Of a stretch of DNA of 28,359 nucleotides, positions 1 to 28,359 are shown in pieces. The notes beneath the pieces were generated by a model. It did not search any database, was not told the DNA's origin, and saw nothing but the letters and a program-made list of their open reading frames with translations. This DNA comes from Planctomycetota bacterium (GTDB lineage Bacteria; Planctomycetota; SZUA-567; H5-PLA8). The position numbers and the translations under genes are program-made. Numbering within the stretch: the first letter of the stretch is position 1; every line of letters starts with the position of its first letter. The DNA is taken from positions 1 to 28,359 of the forward strand of contig BTVV01000079.1 of NCBI GenBank assembly GCA_045863855.1. The letters are read 5' to 3'.

Positions 1-22
1 CGCTACTTAAGGAGAGCCGGGA

Positions 23-331
23 ATGGACGCTAACGCAAGGCGTGAGAACGAGTTGAAGAAGGTCATCCAGATCGACGAGGGGCGCATCCAGGCGCACTTG
101 GACGAGAAGGTCCGGCAGAGCGTCGAGGAGACGCTCAACGCGCTCCTGGACGCCGAGGCCGACGAACTCTGCCAGGCCAGGCGCTACGAACGCACGGCCG
201 CTCGGCGCAGTACGCGCGCGGGGCATTACACGCGCGCTCTGCATACCAAGGCCGGCGAGGTCGAACTGAAGATGCCGAAGCTGCGCACGCTCCCGTTCGA
301 GACGGCCATCGTCGAACGCTACCGGCGCCGC
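23..331 (+). pseudogene. IS256 (mutator) family transposase, N-terminal fragment
   Basis: Translation (…VEETLNALLDAEADELCQARRYER…RAGHYTRALHTKAGEVELKMPKLRTLPFETAIVERYRRR) matches the IS256 N-terminus. Similarity ends after RRR (~331), and the ORF reads on through unrelated T-rich sequence to a stop at 394. No DDE domain. RBS AAGGAG at 9-14. Confidence 0.88.
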
Positions 332-3209: not shown

Positions 3210-4223
3210 ATGCTGCTTGAATGGACGCACCCCATTGCAGCCGGGTTCTTTCAATCGGACCATGCAACGCGCCGGCCGCCGCTGGATACGAGCCGGCACG
3301 CGGCGTTGATTTACGTGACGACGGGCGAAGGCTTCTGGCAAGTGGGGGCGTGGACGTTCCCGATCCGGCGCGGCGATTTCTTCGCGGTGCCGGAAGGCTG
3401 CGAACTGGCTCCGCGGTTGAAGCTGGGGGGGCTGCTGGGTTTCTATTACGCGCATTTCGAACTGGATCTGCGCGAACGCGCGCGCGGCCTGACGTTGAAA
3501 TGGCCTTGGGATCTGAGCGACGACGTGCCGAAGCCGACCGAACCCGCCGAAGCTCCTGTGGCCGGCGGGGAATTCCAGCCCGAGATCGCGGCGCTGTTCC
3601 GTCAGTTGCAGCACGAGCTGGGCCGGCGGCTGCCGGCGGCCCGCGCCGCGGCGCGGGCGCAGTTGACGCTGCTGGGCGTGGCGTACGCGCGCCAGATCGT
3701 CGCCGCGGCGCGCTCGAAGGAGGAGACGGACGCGCATGCGCCGGTGCGGCCGAAGCATTCGGCGCGTTCGGGGCGCGCGCTTCCGGAATCGGTGGCCAAG
3801 ACGATCGATTACGTGCACGATCACCTGGACCGGGAGCTGAAACTGACCGAATTGGCTCGCGTGGCGGGGTTCAGCGAGCGTCGGCTGATCCAGGTATTTC
3901 GCAAGCTGCTGGGCCGTTCGCCCATGGCGTTCGTGCGCGAGCAGCGCATCCGCGAGGCGCAGCGCCTGCTGTCCCAGCGCGGGATCACGATCAAGGATGT
4001 CGCGGCGCGCTTGAACTTCGCCGATGCGCATCATTTCAGCCGCGTCTTCCGGCAGGTGACGGGAATTTCGCCCAGCGATTTCGTGCGCGGCCTGCCGCTG
4101 CGCAAGAATCCGCAAAGCGGTCATGTGGCGGTCAGCCGTCCCGATACGCAGCCCAAGCGCGAATCGAACCGCATCTCGAACCGGCAGCCGCGCCCCAGCG
4201 GGCGCTTCAACGCGGCGCTGTAA
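3210..4223 (+). CDS. AraC/XylS family transcriptional regulator, paralog 1
   Basis: Cupin-like N-terminus (LIYVTTGEGFWQVG) and AraC double HTH (LKLTELARVAGFSERRLIQVFRK…TIKDVAARLNFADAHHFSRVFRQVTGISPSDF). The start may lie slightly upstream. Confidence 0.92.
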   Translation: MLLEWTHPIAAGFFQSDHATRRPPLDTSRHAALIYVTTGEGFWQVGAWTFPIRRGDFFAVPEGCELAPRLKLGGLLGFYYAHFELDLRERARGLTLKWPWDLSDDVPKPTEPAEAPVAGGEFQPEIAALFRQLQHELGRRLPAARAAARAQLTLLGVAYARQIVAAARSKEETDAHAPVRPKHSARSGRALPESVAKTIDYVHDHLDRELKLTELARVAGFSERRLIQVFRKLLGRSPMAFVREQRIREAQRLLSQRGITIKDVAARLNFADAHHFSRVFRQVTGISPSDFVRGLPLRKNPQSGHVAVSRPDTQPKRESNRISNRQPRPSGRFNAAL

Positions 4224-5219: not shown

Positions 5220-5789
5220 CTACACTCGAGAGGCCAGCTCGCGGAACGCTCCGAACTGCGTCGCGTCCAGGATGGTCTTCAAGCCGGCTACGAATTTCCG
5301 ATTCGGATCGAACGAGCGGCACGCGCCGGCGGCTTCGACGACGTCGCGTGCGATCGTCTGGCACGCCACGGGGCAGGCGGTGCGTTCGTAGGTCAACCGC
5401 GCGCTGGACTGTTCCTTCACCAGCTTCTCGGCTTCCGCGCGAATGGAGCGCTTCAGCGCGTCGACGCGTTCGGTCTGCTCGGCGCTGAGGTTCAGGCCGC
5501 TGACCACCGCGTCGAACTTGCGGGTATCCAAGCTGGCGATTTCCACCGCCGCAGGCAGCGGAAACTTCTGCGCCGTCTGGCCGCATGAAGACTGCCCGTC
5601 GCCGCCCGTTCCGCGCGCCCCCAGCCCGCCGGTGACGACGGAGCCGCGCTTGCCCGCCGGCTGCCCGCCGCTGCGCACCCCCACGCGTCCGCCGCCGCTG
5701 CGGCCGCCGCCACCGCACAATGCGAACGCATCCGAACTGCACCACGCGCCGACCATCAGCAGAAGCGCGCCCATCGTAAGCATCTTCAT
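5220..5789 (-). CDS. Secreted LTXXQ-motif (Spy/CpxP-like) helical protein, paralog 2
   Basis: Signal peptide, Gly-rich linker, LNLSAEQ and ILDATQF motifs. Aligns with 2292-2843 (PLPxAxxIxxLDTxxFDA…ACRxxDPN…FREL). RBS AAGGAG upstream. Confidence 0.78.
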   Translation of the reverse strand: MKMLTMGALLLMVGAWCSSDAFALCGGGGRSGGGRVGVRSGGQPAGKRGSVVTGGLGARGTGGDGQSSCGQTAQKFPLPAAVEIASLDTRKFDAVVSGLNLSAEQTERVDALKRSIRAEAEKLVKEQSSARLTYERTACPVACQTIARDVVEAAGACRSFDPNRKFVAGLKTILDATQFGAFRELASRV

Positions 5790-6010: not shown

Positions 6011-7006
6011 ATGAAAGCAGGAATCGGAGCACCGCTCTTGCTCTTCGAACACGCCCGACCGGTGGCCGCCGGCTACTTTCAATGCGATCTGAACACGCGG
6101 CGCGCGCATCGCGATCCGTCCGCTCAGGCGGCGCTGGTGTATCTCGCCAGCGGCGCGGGCACCTGGAAGATCGGCCCGTGGCAAGGCAAGCTGGAGCGCG
6201 GCGGATTGCTTGCGCTGCCCGTGGACATGCCGGCGGCTTTGTATCCGCTTCCGCATCAGGCGCTGGGCTATTACTACGTGTACCTGGAAGCGAACGGTCC
6301 GAACGGCGCGAAGGATTTGCGCTGGCCGTGGGATTTGGGGATCGCCTGGCCCCACGGGGAGGCGCCGCCGCCGGTGGCGAGCGGCGATTTTCAGGCCAGC
6401 ATGGCGGGACTGGTGCGGCGGATTCAGGACGAACTCGCGCGCCGGCGCACGGGCGCGCCGGTGGTGGCCCGCGCGTGCTTGAGCCTGCTGGGGGTCGGCT
6501 TCGCGCGCATGCTGAGCGTGCCGCACGAACCGCGGACGGCCGGACACGCCCTCCGAACGGCGCCGAAGTCCGGCGCCGAATGGCCCGAGCCCGTCGCGCG
6601 CGCGGTGGACTTCGTGCTCCAGAACCTCGACCGCGATCTTTCGCTGCTGGAACTGGCGCGCGTCGCGCGCTACAGCGAGCGCCGGCTGGTGCAACTCTTT
6701 CGCGCCGCGCTGGGGCGTTCGCCCATGGCGTACGTCCGTGAGCAGCGGGTGCGCGAGTCGCAGCGGCTGCTGATGCAGGGCGGCATGACGATCAAGGAGG
6801 TCGCGCTGCGGCTGAACTTCGCCGATCCGCAGCATTTCTGCCGCGTCTTCCGGCAGGCCACGGGGATCACGCCCAGCGATTTTCTCGCCGGCCGCGCGCC
6901 GCTCAAGCAGCCGCGCGCTTCGGGGTACACCCCGTCATCCGAAAGCCGCCGCGAACAACCTCGGCGCGGCAGCGGGCATCGCTCCGCCGCCGCTTCGCAT
7001 GCCTGA
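6011..7006 (+). CDS. AraC/XylS family transcriptional regulator, paralog 2
   Basis: AraC double HTH (LSLLELARVARYSERRLVQLFR…TIKEVALRLNFADPQHFCRVFRQATGITPSDF). Collinear with paralog 1, including PxAAGxFQxD and LxWPWDL. Confidence 0.92.
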   Translation: MKAGIGAPLLLFEHARPVAAGYFQCDLNTRRAHRDPSAQAALVYLASGAGTWKIGPWQGKLERGGLLALPVDMPAALYPLPHQALGYYYVYLEANGPNGAKDLRWPWDLGIAWPHGEAPPPVASGDFQASMAGLVRRIQDELARRRTGAPVVARACLSLLGVGFARMLSVPHEPRTAGHALRTAPKSGAEWPEPVARAVDFVLQNLDRDLSLLELARVARYSERRLVQLFRAALGRSPMAYVREQRVRESQRLLMQGGMTIKEVALRLNFADPQHFCRVFRQATGITPSDFLAGRAPLKQPRASGYTPSSESRREQPRRGSGHRSAAASHA

Positions 7007-7567: not shown

Positions 7568-8812
7568 ATGTCCAGGTCTAGCGTGGCTTATGAGCAAAGC
7601 GTGCTGTTGACGAGCGCATGGACGCGGCTGGTTCACGCGCTGCACCTCCAGAAGGCCGCGAAGGCGGCAGGCCAAGCCGTACCTGCGGCATTCGCGTGCA
7701 CGCCCGCCGAACGGGAACGCTTGGCGCCGGTGGTGAACCTGGGCCTCGCGTTATCCAAGCGCGGCGCGGTCGAATTCAAGACTTGGGCGAGCGGCACGCA
7801 TGCCGAACTCGAAGCGGCGCTCGTGCGGCTGCGCGACGAACTTCCCGATCCGGCAGACGGTACGCCGGGACCCGTTTTGCGGGCTTGGCTGCAAGCACAG
7901 GCGCCGCAGGCGTCCGAGACGGCGCGCGCGGCGGTGGCCAGTTTGGTCCAACTCTGCCTGCTCGTGGATCGCGACGGCGATCTGCTTCAGGATTTATACC
8001 GCTGCTATCTTGCCGTGGGGCTGCCGGTCTGCTTCTCGGATCTCGGGTTGCCATCGGACCACGCGGCGTTGGAGGAGGCCGCGCGGGTGCTCGCGGCTCG
8101 AACCGTGCCGTGTCCGTTCGATACCACGGCGCTGGGCTGGCAGATGGCGCTTCAGAAGGTGACGATGTGGGGCGAGAAGAACAGCGGGCGGCGCGACAAG
8201 CACACGCTGGCGCGCGAACTGCTGGCCGATCCGGAGGTTCAGGCGCTGCTGCCGGCGCTGAAGGCGCGGGGCTCCAGGCGGATCGGCATTCTGGGCCACA
8301 GCATGACGATGAGCCTGCACTGGACGACGCACGGTTCCTGGTGCGAAGTGGCGTGCGAACTGCTCAAGCTGGTTCAGCCCGGGGTGGAATACGCGAGCTT
8401 CCAAGCGGGCGGCCTGACGCCGGCGCGCGCACTTAAGGAGGGGCTGGCGGACCGGCTGCTCGAATGGCGCCCCCGCGAGGCGCTGCTGTTCATGTTCTTG
8501 GGCAAGCCCGAAGACCGCGTGAGCCTGGCGGAGATCGTGCGGCGCTTGAAGGCCGCCGAGGTCCGCATCCAGATCGTCGACGATATCCGTCCGTGGATCT
8601 ACGAATGGTATCAAGGCCAGGAGGCCGAACACGCGTACGAACGCGAACTGTGTGCGCGCGAAGGCGCGGTCTTCCTCGACATGCAGCGGCGCTACCGCTT
8701 CGCGAAGGATTGGGAATCGTGGAAGCCGCTGGGCGGCGACGTGCATCTGCATACGCCCGCGCATGTATTCTATGCGAAGGAACTCCTGAAGGATTGGGCG
8801 GCTTCGGGCTGA
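7568..8812 (+). CDS. Hypothetical protein with C-terminal SGNH/GDSL-like hydrolase domain
   Basis: IGILGHSMT (block I-like), AGGLT (block II-like), GGDVHLHTPAH (block V-like). RBS AAGGAG at 7553-7558. Confidence 0.7.
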   Translation: MSRSSVAYEQSVLLTSAWTRLVHALHLQKAAKAAGQAVPAAFACTPAERERLAPVVNLGLALSKRGAVEFKTWASGTHAELEAALVRLRDELPDPADGTPGPVLRAWLQAQAPQASETARAAVASLVQLCLLVDRDGDLLQDLYRCYLAVGLPVCFSDLGLPSDHAALEEAARVLAARTVPCPFDTTALGWQMALQKVTMWGEKNSGRRDKHTLARELLADPEVQALLPALKARGSRRIGILGHSMTMSLHWTTHGSWCEVACELLKLVQPGVEYASFQAGGLTPARALKEGLADRLLEWRPREALLFMFLGKPEDRVSLAEIVRRLKAAEVRIQIVDDIRPWIYEWYQGQEAEHAYERELCAREGAVFLDMQRRYRFAKDWESWKPLGGDVHLHTPAHVFYAKELLKDWAASG

Positions 8813-8858: not shown

Positions 8859-10415
8859 ATGCCCGTCACGCTCGTGCACCGCCCGAAAGGCGTCCCCGCC
8901 GAACGCCTGCTCCTGATCGGGGGGTTCGACGCCGAATTGTCCGCGGCGTTACGCAAGACCAACTGGCTGGTGGAAGAACTCCTCGACGGGCGCGAAGCGC
9001 TGGAGAGCGCCTCGCAGCGCGAGTACGGCGTGGTGCTGTGCAGCCTGCGTATGGACGGGACGTGGGGCCTCGACGTGATGGAGGCGGTGCTGCGCGCCGA
9101 TCCGCTGACGCCGGTGGTGATCTCGACGCACGAACGCAATCCGCGGGTGGTGGTGGAGGCGATGCAGCGCGGCGCGTTCGATTACGTCAACGAGCCGTAC
9201 GTCGACTTGCCCGGTGTGCTGCGGGTGCTGGACCGCGCGGTGCAGCGCCGCGTGGCGCTGCGGCAAGGTCGCGAATGGCGCGCGGCGCTGGCCGGAGACG
9301 GCGTGCGCTTCTTCGGGGATCTGGTGGGGCGGAGCGAAGCGTTCCGCGAGTTGTGCGAAAAGGTGCGGCAGGTGGCGCCGAACCGTTCTCCGGTGCTGGT
9401 GGAAGGCGAATCGGGGGTCGGCAAAGAAGGCGTGGCCCGCGCGCTGCACGAAGCCAGCGAACGTCGTTACGGTCCGTTCGTGGCCGTGCATTGCGGGGCG
9501 ATTCCCGAAAGCCTGCTCGAAAGCGAACTTTTCGGGCACGAGAAGGGCGCGTTTACCGGCGCCGACGCCACGCGCGTGGGTGTCTTCGAAGCCGCCAGCG
9601 GCGGCACGCTCTTTCTCGACGAGATCGGGCTCACCAGTCCGGCGTGCCAAGGCAAGCTGCTTCGGGTCCTCGAGAACGGCGTGATCCGTCGCGTCGGCGC
9701 GAGCCGGGAGTTTCAAGTCGACGTGCGGGTCGTCAGCGCCACCAACGAACCGCTCGACGAACTCGTCGCGCAGAAGCGCTTCCGCGCAGACCTGTTTTAC
9801 CGCTTGAACGTGGTGACGCTGAAGGCGCCGCCGCTGCGCGAACGCAAAGAGGATATCGCGCTGCTGGCGTACCACTTCGCGCAGCGCTTCGCCGACGAAT
9901 CGGGCAAACCGTTCGAGGCCATCTCCCCGCCGGCCCTGGAAGCGCTGCAGGCGCACGCGTATCCGGGCAACGTGCGCGAACTTCGCAACCTCGTCGAGCG
10001 GGCGGTCGTCTTCGCGCGCGGGCCGGTCATCCGCACGACGGATCTGCCCGAAGCGCTTCGCACGTCGGCGCCGCGCGAGGCGCCCGGCTCGGAAGCCGAA
10101 CCCGCGCCTTCGGCGGCGTCGCGCGCGCAGCGCGCGCATCTGCTGGGCGCGCGCGGAGCCGGCGGGCTCGACGAGCGCCTCGCCGCGGTGGAGCAGAGCT
10201 TGCTGGAGCAGGCGCTCGCACAGGCCGGCGGGAACCGTTCGCACGCCGCGCGGCTGCTGGATATCCGGCGCACCAATCTGCTGCAGAAGCTCCGGCGCTA
10301 CGGACTCGACGGCGGCAAGCCCCATCGCGCGAAGATCAAGCGCACCAAGCCATCCGGCGCGAAGCTCAAGGCAAAGCCGAAGCCCAAGCCCAACCCGAAG
10401 AAGCGCAAGCGGTAA
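8859..10415 (+). CDS. Sigma54-dependent enhancer-binding protein (NtrC/AtoC architecture) with degenerate receiver domain
   Basis: Walker A GESGVGKE, ESELFGHEKGAFTGA, Walker B LFLDEI, FRADLFYRLNV, YPGNVRELRN, and Fis-type HTH GNRSHAARLLDIRRTNL. Confidence 0.93.
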   Translation: MPVTLVHRPKGVPAERLLLIGGFDAELSAALRKTNWLVEELLDGREALESASQREYGVVLCSLRMDGTWGLDVMEAVLRADPLTPVVISTHERNPRVVVEAMQRGAFDYVNEPYVDLPGVLRVLDRAVQRRVALRQGREWRAALAGDGVRFFGDLVGRSEAFRELCEKVRQVAPNRSPVLVEGESGVGKEGVARALHEASERRYGPFVAVHCGAIPESLLESELFGHEKGAFTGADATRVGVFEAASGGTLFLDEIGLTSPACQGKLLRVLENGVIRRVGASREFQVDVRVVSATNEPLDELVAQKRFRADLFYRLNVVTLKAPPLRERKEDIALLAYHFAQRFADESGKPFEAISPPALEALQAHAYPGNVRELRNLVERAVVFARGPVIRTTDLPEALRTSAPREAPGSEAEPAPSAASRAQRAHLLGARGAGGLDERLAAVEQSLLEQALAQAGGNRSHAARLLDIRRTNLLQKLRRYGLDGGKPHRAKIKRTKPSGAKLKAKPKPKPNPKKRKR

Positions 10416-10436
10416 CTCCCCGGAAAGCCCTCTTAC

Positions 10437-11282
10437 ATGGACGCGTTCCTGCAAGCCTGGATCATACCGCCCGAAACGTCGGCCGAACCTTGGGTGTACA
10501 TCACGACGGCGGTGGTGGCGCTGGCGCTGACGGCGGTAAGCAAAGGCGGTTTCGGCGGCGGCGTGGGGATCGTCTCGGTACCGCTGATGCTGCAAGTCGC
10601 GCCGGCGCATTTCGTGGTGGGGCTCTGGCTGCCCGTGCTGATCTCCTGCGACCTCGCGACGATTCACCACTATCCGAAGCAGTGGAGCCCGCGCGCGGCG
10701 TTTCAGCTCGCGCCGGGCATGCTGCTGGGCATCGCGGGGACGACGGTCCTGCTGAGCTGGGTGGTGACGAATCCCGACTCGCCCGAAACGAAGGCGACGC
10801 AGGCGCTGCACGAAGCCTGGTTAAAGCTGGGCATCGCGGCGGTGGGTTTCGTCTTCGTCGCGCTGCGCTGGGCGCCGCAGGCCAAGGAAGACGCGGAGCC
10901 CTGGAAGCCCAACTGGATCGTATCGTTTCCCATCGGCTTCGTGGCGGGCGTGACGACCACCGTCGCGCATGCGGCGGGGACGATCATCACCATGTTTCTT
11001 TTGCCGCAAAAGCTCGACAAGCGTGTTTTCGTCGGCACCACCGGTCGTTACTTTTTCGCGTTCAACTCGCTGAAGGTTCCGTTCATGCTCGCGATCGGCT
11101 GGATCAATATCGACACGCTTAAGTACGGACTGTGGCTGATGCTCCTCGCGCCGCTGGGGGTCGGGTTCGGTTCGTGGCTGAATCACCGCCTCAGCGCCGC
11201 GCGCTTTACGCAATGGATCTTCATTTTCCTGGTGCTGGCGTGCGGCAAGCTGGTTTACGACGGGGTCCGGGTGATCCGGTAG
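10437..11282 (+). CDS. TauE/SafE (TSUP) family membrane transporter
   Basis: Multiple TM helices, SKGGFGGGVGIVSVPL, AHAAG…LDKRVFVGT…FNSLKVP. Confidence 0.88.
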   Translation: MDAFLQAWIIPPETSAEPWVYITTAVVALALTAVSKGGFGGGVGIVSVPLMLQVAPAHFVVGLWLPVLISCDLATIHHYPKQWSPRAAFQLAPGMLLGIAGTTVLLSWVVTNPDSPETKATQALHEAWLKLGIAAVGFVFVALRWAPQAKEDAEPWKPNWIVSFPIGFVAGVTTTVAHAAGTIITMFLLPQKLDKRVFVGTTGRYFFAFNSLKVPFMLAIGWINIDTLKYGLWLMLLAPLGVGFGSWLNHRLSAARFTQWIFIFLVLACGKLVYDGVRVIR

Positions 11283-26092: not shown

Positions 26093-26127
26093 AGCCGCCG
26101 GCACGCCGTAACGCTCAAGCCGCATGG

Positions 26128-26161
26128 AAACGCCCCGCTCCACCGAGCGGGGCGTTTTTTT
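26128..26161 (+). terminator. Rho-independent terminator of the thiE-NYN unit
   Basis: AAACGCCCCGCTC-cacc-GAGCGGGGCGTTT, with the stem running into a T7 tract. Confidence 0.9.
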
Positions 26162-26285
26162 GTGCTTCCGAACGGCGTCCGGCATTCAGACGGCCACGGC
26201 GAATTGCGCGTACAACGCGGTCAACGCGCGGCCGGTTATCACAGCAGCTCGGCGGGGGTGGCGGAGGCCATAACAAAAACGCAAA

Positions 26286-26301
26286 TGTTCCACGTGGAAC
26301 A
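26286..26301. promoter_or_regulatory. parS: parS centromere-like site (ParB binding)
   Basis: Perfect palindrome TGTTCCACGTGGAACA (extends to 20 bp, 26284-26303), matching the bacterial parS consensus TGTTNCACGTGNAACA; intergenic. Confidence 0.85.
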
Positions 26302-26712
26302 TTCACGATGCGAAGCGAGGTGCTCTTGTGCGGCAACTTTTCGAACGAACTTTAAGGACTTAGAAGGACGAAAACGCGGTCTATACCACCTCGCGCACGT
26401 CGAGCAAAAATTCGATTCTGCTATAAAACTGCCATAAATCGCTGCTGCAAAGCGTATATTTGCACGCAGGTGCTTAGTGTCCGGGCGGCTATGCGCGAGG
26501 GGCTGAACGGGTGCAGGCGGTGCGGGGGCCCAAAAAACGCGGCCTTCCGTGGCCTTCGGCGTTCGGCGTTCGGCGCGGGGTCCAGGCGGTTTCAGGTGTG
26601 CTTAAGAGGATGAGGTTGTTTCGTGTTTAGCCGTTCCGTTCGCCAGGCGCGAGTCTATCATGGGTGGGATGGGAAGTGGGGGTGTGGTGTGAGGCGGTGC
26701 GCGCGCCGGTGA

Positions 26713-26769
26713 GGCACGGAGCAGCGCCCACTACGCTTGCTCCATGGTAACCGCTTCCGGCCACCCGCC
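26713..26769 (+). repeat. REP-like hairpin + tail, unit 1 (degenerate)
   Basis: CACGGAGCA-GC…GCTTGCTCCATG followed by GTAACCGCTTCCGGCCACCCGCC; near-copy of 26872-26927. Confidence 0.8.
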
Positions 26770-26871
26770 GTGGCGCTGGTCGAGTTTCCGGTGGCTGGAG
26801 CAGGGGCGAAAAGAGGGCGAACCCGTGGTGGTGGACGAATGGGTGGAGGTTTGAGCGTGCGCGGTCGGCTG

Positions 26872-26927
26872 GGCACGGAGCAAGCACACACCGCTTGCTC
26901 CGTGGCACCCGCTCCCGGCCACCCGCC
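26872..26927 (+). repeat. REP-like hairpin + tail, unit 2
   Basis: Perfect 12-bp stem CACGGAGCAAGC (26874-26885) / GCTTGCTCCGTG (26893-26904), then GCACCCGCTCCCGGCCACCCGCC. Confidence 0.85.
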
Positions 26928-27034
26928 AGGAAACCGGCCCAGTTCCAGGCTTTCAGGAGGACGAAGTTCGAATACCTTATGGTTCATTGGAAGAGCTGAA
27001 TAGGAGGACTACGGATAGGAGACTTATACCTTGA
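26927..27034 (+). pseudogene. Headless 3' gene remnant (QETGPVPGFQEDEVRIPYGSLEELNRRTTDRRLIP*), possible toxin C-terminal tip
   Basis: Open frame from the repeat boundary to TGA 27032-27034, which overlaps the TTG start (27031) of the next gene as TTGA. Confidence 0.45.
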
Positions 27035-27321
27035 ATTGTCGAGTCGGCACTATTCTGAAGGGTACTGTTGAGCGAATTGCACATTTCGGCATCTTCGTAA
27101 GGCTGCTCGACGGATCTGTAGGATTTGTTGACTTAGTAAATATTCCTAGAGATGCCACGGGAACTCGCAAGTTTCCTGAGTTGGGGAGCCTTTTCGAATT
27201 TGTTGTGATTGGATTGGATGGCGAAGATGTGAGATTGAGCCAGCTGGCTGAAGACCTTGAAAATGCGAAGTCAGGAAAATTGCCTAATAGCCGATTTGGA
27301 CCCTTCAAGCCTAGGCATTAA
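27031..27321 (+). CDS. Stand-alone S1 (OB-fold) domain protein, low GC
   Basis: VGTILKGTVERIAHFGIFVRL..GSVGFV…ELGSLFEFVVIGLDGEDVRLS is an S1 signature. AGGAG at 27017-27021. Confidence 0.85.
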   Translation: MNCRVGTILKGTVERIAHFGIFVRLLDGSVGFVDLVNIPRDATGTRKFPELGSLFEFVVIGLDGEDVRLSQLAEDLENAKSGKLPNSRFGPFKPRH

Positions 27322-27353
27322 AAATCGTGGCCGTATGTGTCAAAAAAGTTCGT

Positions 27354-27576
27354 GTGGCGGGTGGCCCGCACAAACCGCATGCTTGTGTGGGTGCCGAAGG
27401 CACAAGAGGCGTGCGGGACACTCGAATTCGATGAGGGCAAATGTGGTGACAGGAAGCGACCGTGGACTTGCAGGCTTCTGAGGCGGTACGCACCCATCCA
27501 TAGCGTACGCTCACGAGCGCCTCTTGTTCGCAAGCTCACCCACACCAATCTGCGATTTGTGTGGGCCACCCGCCAC
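27354..27576. mobile_element. REPIN/MITE-like element with ~60-bp imperfect terminal inverted repeats
   Basis: The left arm GTGGCGGGTGGCCCGCACAAACCGCATGCTTGTGTGGGTG…ACAAGAGGCG is the imperfect reverse complement of the right arm CGCCTCTTGT…CACCCACACCAATCTGCGATTTGTGTGGGCCACCCGCCAC. Each arm is itself a hairpin. Confidence 0.78.
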
Positions 27577-27595
27577 CCGCTCCCGGCCACCCGCC
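27575..27595 (+). repeat. Third copy of the tail ACCCGCTCCCGGCCACCCGCC
   Basis: 21/21 identical to 26907-26927. Confidence 0.85.
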
Positions 27596-27636
27596 ATTAC
27601 GCGTGCCGCAGCCTGAGCAACCATAGGAGACTTCGC

Positions 27637-28359
27637 GTGCGATCAAGAAATTTGCAGATACTGGCATATTTACTATTGCCGCCAATGCTTCTTGTGCCCT
27701 CTATTGAATTACGAGGGGAGGAATTGACAGAAGATGAAATATGTATTTTGCTAGAAAAAGCAATACAAGTTCGCGGGCCAGAATACATGGCTATTCGTGC
27801 GAAAGTGCTGGAGGCAAAGAATATTCTAATACCAATACTAGCAAAGAGACTATTGAATGAGGTTGATGTTGAGAAAAAGTTGGTATTTGAGGCGCTGCTT
27901 GGCTGGTGCCTGTATCAAGATCACTATAGCGCGATAGAGAAAGCGCTTAGCATAGGTGACAGAAGTGCCCCACCTGAATGGCATGGGGAGGGGCATGTTA
28001 TGCCTGCATATGCAGAGGCTCTTCTTAAACTCGATCCACCAGAAGGCCTAGAAGATCGACTGAGTTGGTTTTTAAAATGTCTTAGGCGGCTAGAGAGTAG
28101 AGATGACCCAAGATGTATATTTGTCTTGCTGTACTACTCAATGAAAATTGATGACAATTCAAAGCTTAAGCGCGCTGCACTAATGTCGATACGGCATGCC
28201 TTTGCACTCCCTCGAGGATTGGATCGGCACTTTATATTAGTCCTAGATACGCGTTGGTTGACGTGGTTATTAAAAACGGCTGCCGAAGATGGCGCTAGTA
28301 GCGTGCGATCATCAGCGCTGAATTTACTTGGGTTTTTCGTCAATTCAGGTGCGACCCAA
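27637..28359 (+). CDS. Low-GC hypothetical helical (HEAT-like) protein with N-terminal hydrophobic segment, 3'-partial
   Basis: Not in the ORF track because it has no stop in the window. GTG 27637 follows AGGAG (27625-27629) and opens 241 uninterrupted codons: MRSRNLQILAYLLLPPMLLVPS…AAEDGASSVRSSALNLLG…. Confidence 0.8.
   Translation, partial: MRSRNLQILAYLLLPPMLLVPSIELRGEELTEDEICILLEKAIQVRGPEYMAIRAKVLEAKNILIPILAKRLLNEVDVEKKLVFEALLGWCLYQDHYSAIEKALSIGDRSAPPEWHGEGHVMPAYAEALLKLDPPEGLEDRLSWFLKCLRRLESRDDPRCIFVLLYYSMKIDDNSKLKRAALMSIRHAFALPRGLDRHFILVLDTRWLTWLLKTAAEDGASSVRSSALNLLGFFVNSGATQ

Follow-up and report, generated by a model that had tools for sequence, protein, structure and literature searches.

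Arrays of single low-GC genes bounded by the ends of RAYT elements in a Planctomycetota genome: a candidate gene-capture system

The locus and its cargo genes

The DNA analyzed here, referred to as the window, is 28,359 nt long and represents the whole of contig C79 from a genome of 6.93 Mb and 63.8% GC (G000). This assembly is 93.9% complete, and repeats break it at many of the slots described below. Loci used for comparison (prefix L) comprise those from a congener (G002) with matches to the leader or to the A, B or R repeats, and a selection from genomes G001, G003 (another genus) and G005. The right end of the window contains the following features.

26126..26159, + strand: terminator-like hairpin closing the host thiE-NYN genes (hairpin search; Pfam for the genes)
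26228..26672, + strand: repeated non-coding leader before arrays, ~450 nt (HMM matches genome-wide)
26713..26769, + strand: unit 1, A-type REP hairpin with tail, start of the variable slot (G002 diverges after 26712)
26770..26854, + strand: 3' remnant of a RAYT gene (WRWSSFRWLE...), fused directly to tail 1 (13 of 15 residues identical to the RAYT on contig C13)
26872..26927, + strand: unit 2, A-type REP hairpin with tail, the right end of an A-type RAYT element (repeat comparison, fold)
26928..27034, + strand: headless open frame QETG...LIP*, whose stop overlaps the next start; candidate toxin tip (ORF; chance ~0.33 in shuffles)
27031..27321, + strand: cargo gene 1, 96-aa single S1-domain protein, 46% GC (PF00575, E 7e-6; Atlas S1 fold)
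27332..27360, + strand: R2 repeat starting at CG, 11 nt past the stop; forms the end of cassette 1 and is itself cut short by element B (12 matches, sharp left edge)
27357..27573, + strand: element B, two-armed and REPIN-like, with GTGG and a hairpin at each end (43-nt inverted arms; internally deleted relative of an intact RAYT element)
27574..27595, + strand: A-type tail added to element B, the end of unit 3 (repeat comparison)
27637..28359, + strand: cargo gene 2, >241 aa, 45% GC, resembling HEAT repeats, incomplete at the contig end (ORF; a lead from Atlas features only, 0.91 to HEAT clusters)

Pfam matches place thiE and an NYN gene upstream of the leader. The orthologous region of G002 aligns at 91% identity up to position 26712 and then gives way to different DNA that includes an RHS gene; the orthologous slot of G001 is without an array. 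By synteny, the slot of the window continues on contig C5, which starts within a B arm and holds further cassettes. The left end of the window (1-322) adjoins a second slot, and a four-gene array is found in G002 (L038:6600-10925) between flanks matching contig C168 and C79:323. The first ORF of the window is presumably a remnant of an IS256-type transposase. The window also contains a tandem paralogous gene block (3802-4101 versus 6603-6902 and 2298-2502 versus 5226-5430) with a period of ~2.8-2.9 kb and 71-76% identity.

The original prediction, made from the letters of the window alone, proposed an array of captured low-GC gene cassettes delimited by REP hairpins. Its feature list was incomplete, as it passed over the ~450-nt leader that precedes the first unit. 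This leader has 31 HMM matches in G000 and at least 15 long copies in G002, and it is a mosaic. Within it lies a perfect 16-bp palindrome (26286-26301), which we take to resemble parS and which has 14 exact copies in G000, many of them within leaders at scattered slots. A search of the leader and spacers against Rfam retrieved no family (best match 17.8 bits, cut-off 48 bits), and a sigma-70 promoter search of the same sequences had no match. Other slots are preceded by a second leader type made of short tandem words (L136:1-210; L038:6500-6620; L058), which has a short motif in common with the first.

Both headless frames named in the prediction are present (QETG...LIP*, stop at 27034; ...PLRVPQPEQP*, whose stop ends at 27626). 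A comparable short tip arose in 33% of the shuffled leaders for unit 2 and in 51% of those for unit 3, and frames as short as these are therefore weak evidence by themselves. An intact gene, expected behind each frame, follows the first one only, as gene 2 ends at the contig edge. The predicted switch to AT-rich DNA amounts to a clear drop in GC content (45-46% versus 64% in the genome), although the cargo is not AT-rich in the strict sense. Cargo gene 1 had no relative among the searched candidates, nor in 400 genomes of the phylum at E ≤ 1e-8, and cargo gene 2 had one weak match only in 1.84 billion proteins. No source of the QETG...LIP* frame or of either cargo gene was found in those searches.

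A conspecific contig (L123) carries cargo gene 2 for 50 nt beyond the window end. A reading of the window's last bases as a copy of repeat R3 is ruled out, because gene 2 continues in this contig. In L123, which originates from another sample, cargo gene 2 lies directly behind a C236-type leader, reflecting either relocation or a chimeric assembly; a 59-nt arm is identical at both cargo 2 loci and the leader is mosaic, and this placement was not counted as evidence. Both cargo genes were detected in four runs from four studies with 0-1 differences per piece listed, and one of these runs may be the source of the assembly. Strain-variable cargo within the species, expected by the prediction, was not seen at the window slot across the four runs. 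Read joints in the runs (e.g., 26927 to 27330) most likely stem from other slots and were not counted as excision.

Identity of the repeats

The three predicted tails, ending at 26769, 26927 and 27595, and the two hairpin types were confirmed, with type A in units 1 and 2 and type B in unit 3. The 19-base tail has four copies in the 6.93-Mb genome, three of them in the window, and the A hairpin has 39 copies in G000. Folding z-scores were −5.35 for unit 2, −2.19 for unit 1, and −2.09 for the B hairpin of unit 3. Unit 3, previously described as a simple hairpin with a tail, does end in an A-type tail, but its hairpin is the right arm of the two-armed, 217-nt element B. Also missed in the first reading were the RAYT gene remnant that forms the DNA after unit 1 and the R2 repeat that closes the first cargo segment at 27332.

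Judged by sequence, the repeats of the window are the outer ends and remnants of RAYT (REP-associated tyrosine transposase) elements. Locus L032 holds a RAYT with an internal deletion, which finishes with the window-type RAYT remnant, A hairpin, and tail, and the arms of element B flank an intact RAYT in L036, L037, and L124. This intact element of ~660 bp with B arms has two copies in G002 and a third in the conspecific contig L124. Because the RAYT remnant, L032, and the intact B-armed RAYTs match, the tail can be identified as the outer end of a RAYT element (the reverse complement of the GTGG-tagged REP foot). A search for a RAYT/Y1 transposase between the same hairpins, which had been suggested as a check, was thus successful: a hairpin-flanked Y1 HUH REP-associated transposase is present in relatives and passed NCBIfam NF047646 (cut-off 80) with 104 bits in L036 (G002; 8022-8531) and 87 bits in G001. 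None is intact in the G000 assembly, in which the two Y1 transposases found are of neither A nor B type and no intact cognate RAYT was detected. The B arms each carry GTGG and a stem, the two copies being inverted, which fits the GT[AG]G consensus given in the available text of PMC6006769. Among 31 inspected loci of related RAYTs, mostly from Planctomycetota, most share this foot in the form GGGTG(G/C)C. In G001, nine copies of a related RAYT element of ~778 bp (L046-L054) are 93-99% identical, i.e., multicopy and IS-like, unlike the single-copy RAYTs described elsewhere in the sources available to us. Neither a search of viral contigs with the A hairpin nor a first sequence-pattern search of metagenomes gave a match.

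Geometry, cargo and junctions of the arrays

Locus L029 contains nine unrelated low-GC genes in a row, nearly all of them set apart from the next by composite blocks that are 88-94% alike, and L022, L031, L034, and L038 hold arrays of the same kind. In a set of 26 hand-chosen regions from G000 and G002, repeat masking left 54 unique segments with GC ≤ 0.50. A single ORF covered at least 65% of the segment in 52 cases, and 48 of the 54 segments were oriented in the array direction. In 30 of the 52 segments, no more than 25 nt separated the stop codon from the segment end; of the others, 11 took their stop from deep within the following repeat, and in 11 it lay further upstream. Furthermore, 36 of 48 low-GC-facing ends (G001 and G002 loci) had a sense start within 170 nt. 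The right boundary of a cassette is either the left foot of another element or one of the sharp-edged repeats R1, R2, or R3. R1 and R2 start at CG, and R1-R3 also close RHS toxin-immunity modules in the same genus; RHS loci with R repeats are found in or beside the slots. By eye, R1 and R2 run into apparent ends of tRNA-integrated islands with tRNA 3' pieces (G000:C144:9605; L036:9423; L037:8518; L141).

The GC content was ≤0.55 after 19 of the 34 A ends in G000, compared to 4.5% of random positions, and >0.55 after the remaining 15. The prediction would be in difficulty if most copies bordered ordinary host genes. Instead, copies cluster in low-GC slots: 58 of the 62 A and B matches lie near a leader (25 within 10 kb) or a contig end (33 within 5 kb), the nearness to contig ends being partly an assembly effect. 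The arrays are messier than those of integrons in that RAYT remnants, inverted units, several repeat types including many kinds of REP, and IS ends occur in the slots, and G003 contains looser versions. Dense piles of other REP/MITE types were seen at L018:3282-4300 and L038:10100-10950, with some arms like those beside an IS200-like gene in L001.

Most of 64 other proteins from cargo regions matched no family; the remainder included four SUKH-like and two ankyrin proteins and a few with trypsin, WD40, EF-Tu-D3, zinc-ribbon, or DUF domains. One cassette (L134:80-379) is a stand-alone, 100-aa EF-Tu domain-3-like gene. Another cargo gene, a low-GC gene of 565 codons in L058 (G002:C1, ~663-665 kb), resembles, on our assumption, a DUF262-type nuclease and may be anti-phage cargo. 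A DUF7919-like cargo of G002 has homologs in eight other genomes of the phylum, mostly among ordinary-looking genes and with no RHS gene recognizable by eye; a ninth homolog, in G003, adjoins a RAYT. Relatives of an SMI1-like cargo obtained in a plasmid search were <50% identical and too distant for junction mapping. In PADLOC, 3 of 55 cargo proteins matched, through generic ankyrin or protease domains only, and no specific match to a known anti-phage defense gene was obtained. The designation as a defense system and an anti-phage role of the cargo are without support from this screen. The accessible part of PMC3482391 counts SUKH, ankyrin, and HEAT among the immunity classes. Some of the cargo could plausibly serve as an immunity bank. 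With regard to the predicted enrichment in immunity genes, the counts are four SUKH-like and two ankyrin proteins and one cassette traced to an RHS locus (see below), beside a majority of the 64 proteins that lack a family. As a source of genes, the arrays offer uncharacterized ones that are probably of the immunity type.

The precise junctions anticipated by the prediction were found at C|G. In 24 two-ended copies, the left flank ended in C 21 times and the right flank started with G 22 times, and the first base past B ends was G in 20 of 24 cases. A-type ends always finish in C, and the next base is not fixed (A 11, C 6, T 3, G 2). Loosely matching motif rows (C12, C24 +57339, C95, C146) were treated as false and entered no count. 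According to the available text of PMC8266576, TnpAREP cuts single-stranded REP DNA at a dinucleotide and joins it again, the attacking 3' base being a C, which fits. The rule reported there for a GTGG guide (C|C or C|A) does not fit the B junctions at C|G.

A rejoining of the flanks into an intact ancestral locus, which would speak against the prediction, was observed for none of the 15 elements with a flank found elsewhere. The flank was accompanied by its natural neighbor, usually across a C|G step, and never by the opposite flank, albeit these 15 elements sit by nature in repeat-rich spots, and insertion with a later one-sided deletion would give the same picture. Several element ends are joined to other repeats or to host DNA. 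Three valid cases of genes open into an R repeat were available, which gives low power; in two of them, no open frame past the block is longer than the one that continues the gene (L022 was left out, as its open frame is not that of the gene).

In favor of the prediction, cargo differs between congeners at the same slots. Host flanks of orthologous G000 and G002 slots are ~92% identical and the content inside differs, the cargo sets of the two genomes being almost wholly different. Cross-genome matches of 53 cargo DNA queries were confined to repeats, one host gene, and one pair with 72-74% identity in different settings. Contig L124 records several joins. A G000 cargo gene (99.4% identity) breaks off in mid-gene at C|G, where the left end of the RAYT takes over with no more than a few shared bases, and C13-type cargo lies beside a C149-like flank. 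The right end of the RAYT is joined to a headless frame of 138 codons. At 45% identity, this frame matches the C-terminus of a protein in which an RHS core motif is recognized, albeit below the family cut-off. The gene downstream of this frame forms the G002 cassette in L034 (gene at 10077-10526), whose C|G cut falls 14 nt ahead of the toxin stop. The L034 cassette starts inside the RHS toxin, and the upstream part of the toxin is absent from the other side of the element. Sequence comparison, with a search against RHS loci as the prediction had proposed, hence traces one congener cassette, consisting of a toxin tip and the downstream gene, to an RHS toxin locus. In 30 leaders, 19 tips were counted, compared to 12.8 predicted by shuffling; the start calls behind this comparison are noisy, and a handful of doubtful rows were kept.

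Possible origins and comparison with known systems

We assign a probability of roughly 0.6 to the reading that single foreign genes bounded by RAYT ends form these arrays and that the RAYT builds them by joining one end at a time to unrelated DNA. This reading starts from the identity of the ends, the C|G joins, the non-rejoining flanks, the mostly co-oriented single-gene geometry, the differences between congeners, and the RHS donor. A link to the enzyme is given by the RAYT remnant in the window, by the intact RAYT between B arms in G002 and L124, and by the related RAYTs with the common foot. Acting in trans, the RAYT would cut single-stranded DNA after C and attach its element ends, one by one, to single strands of foreign or distant origin. 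RHS-type toxin-immunity modules would largely be the donors, with their 3' repeats R1-R3 coming along as the right boundary. Homologous recombination between the repeated spacer blocks would move and multiply cassettes among slots, and selection would keep immunity-type genes, so that the arrays would do what rAID and integron arrays do, but with no tyrosine recombinase involved. Counter to RAYT capture are the lack of an intact A or B RAYT in the G000 assembly, the identical flanks that insertion with deletion from one end would leave, the variable base after A ends, the small share of SUKH-like proteins (4 of 64) in a cargo mostly without a family, the two of three genes open into R that could continue past the block, the disagreement of C|G with the rule in the available text of PMC8266576, the near-identical window cargo in four runs, the G001 slot without an array, and the 15 of 34 A ends that face GC >0.55. 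More tentatively, and with some doubt on our side, the arrays might represent a third kind of bacterial gene-capture array beside integrons and rAID, in which a RAYT attaches incoming single-stranded DNA to REP ends at C|G and stores single immunity genes, taken from the toxin loci of rivals, behind a dedicated leader in at least 15 chromosomal slots, to the benefit of the host.

Without any capture, RAYTs and REPINs might also have piled up selfishly in acquired RHS or immunity islands, which end deletions then trimmed to the selected genes. The many REP types, RAYT remnants, IS ends, and inverted units in the slots are consistent with such an origin, as are the RHS loci with R repeats in or beside them, the ends joined to other repeats or host DNA, and the nine elements of G001 with 93-99% identity, as expected of a mobile IS. 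We nonetheless consider it unlikely, as it does not readily account for up to nine unrelated single genes in a row with near-identical composite blocks between nearly all of them (L029), for cargo that is almost wholly different between congeners despite ~92% identical host flanks, or for the C13-type cargo beside a C149-like flank in L124. A simple secondary insertion of composite REPIN blocks into CG sites between the genes of contiguous poly-immunity islands would leave C|G on both sides, as observed, and two of the three valid genes open into R could continue in the longest open frame past the block (a test of low power). This explanation is largely refuted where testable by the 0 of 15 elements that rejoin, and the L034 cassette, which starts in an RHS toxin whose upstream part is not across the element, and the eleven genes that take their stop from well inside a repeat further reduce its probability to a very low level. 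Scarcely more credible is that the cassettes are the product of a different enzyme, be it a tyrosine recombinase, an IS110 recombinase, or a reverse transcriptase, for which the REP-derived sequence is a site only. The tight single-gene geometry resembling integron cassettes, the 18 and 19 tyrosine-recombinase matches in G000 and G002, respectively, and the missing cognate RAYT in the G000 assembly would be compatible with this possibility. However, no tyrosine-recombinase match passes the integron-integrase cut-off, none is located by coordinates within 15 kb of the 15 long G002 leaders, and the junctions sit at the ends of RAYT elements, intact ones included.

RAYT-mediated capture would give rise to arrays that share features with several known systems. 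In integron and CALIN arrays, a leader is followed by tightly trimmed cassettes that hold one gene each and mostly point the same way, and a repeat comes after every stop. The arrays described here are alike in their trimmed cassettes (52 of 54 with a single ORF, 48 of 54 in the array direction), their leader, and the repeat past the stops, and they differ in having neither an attC motif nor IntI and in a presumed HUH cut-and-join reaction instead of tyrosine recombination. None of three genomes had an integron integrase above the TIGR02249 cut-off, and no RYYYAAC...GTTRRRY core-site pair was present in 26700-28359 by pattern matching, in agreement with the original prediction, and an attC/integron reading was rejected.

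The rAID-1 arrays of Bacteroidales also comprise low-GC, co-directional, immunity-like genes with a repeated intergenic sequence suggestive of active acquisition, as far as described in the available text of 10.1101/471110. The present arrays likewise have at least two low-GC genes in one direction with repeats between them, low being relative to a host of 64% GC, as the 41% GC cut-off given there was made for Bacteroidales. In contrast to rAID-1, there is no 5' XerD-like recombinase (thiE-NYN lies upstream in the window, and none occurs within 15 kb of the 15 G002 leaders), the spacers are RAYT ends and remnants of 200-450 nt, each genome has many slots, and the immunity function of the cargo is putative. 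With no adjacent XerD, no IntI, and no attC, the arrays belong to neither rAID-1 nor the integrons. Polyimmunity loci and orphan RHS modules resemble them in their SUKH, ankyrin, and HEAT-type genes and in the toxin tip before a gene, whereas nearly every gene is individually bounded by transposase ends here, a mechanism not named in the accessible part of PMC3482391.

By its enzyme and hairpins, the system is best classed as REPtron/REPIN, with which it shares the HUH Y1 transposase, inverted GT[AG]G-tagged hairpins, non-autonomous two-armed derivatives, and dinucleotide junctions, as far as these are described in the available parts of PMC8266576, PMC6006769, and 10.1101/2021.07.10.451892. 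It departs from these sources in that its copies are gathered in hypervariable slots and not in the intergenic DNA of the host, with flanks that fail to rejoin and ends that look onto single foreign genes; moreover, G001 has multiple copies of an intact element, and the junctions are at C|G and not C|T. A dispersal as simple insertions in host intergenic DNA is also at odds with the 58 of 62 matches near a leader or contig end and the 0 of 15 rejoining elements. Within the literature accessible to our search, no paper describing REP- or RAYT-delimited gene arrays was found, and supplements of REP surveys might list the repeats. With the RAYT clade, its ends, the C|G junction rule, and a traced donor-to-cassette event in hand, gene collecting by RAYTs is directly testable, as the RAYT of this lineage is one protein of 170 residues that can be assayed with short DNA oligonucleotides. 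The compared cassette arrays, integrons and rAID, depend on tyrosine recombinases. The host benefit of RAYT-REPIN systems is called unclear in the available part of a review (10.1101/2021.07.10.451892). If true, gene collecting would supply this long-sought benefit.
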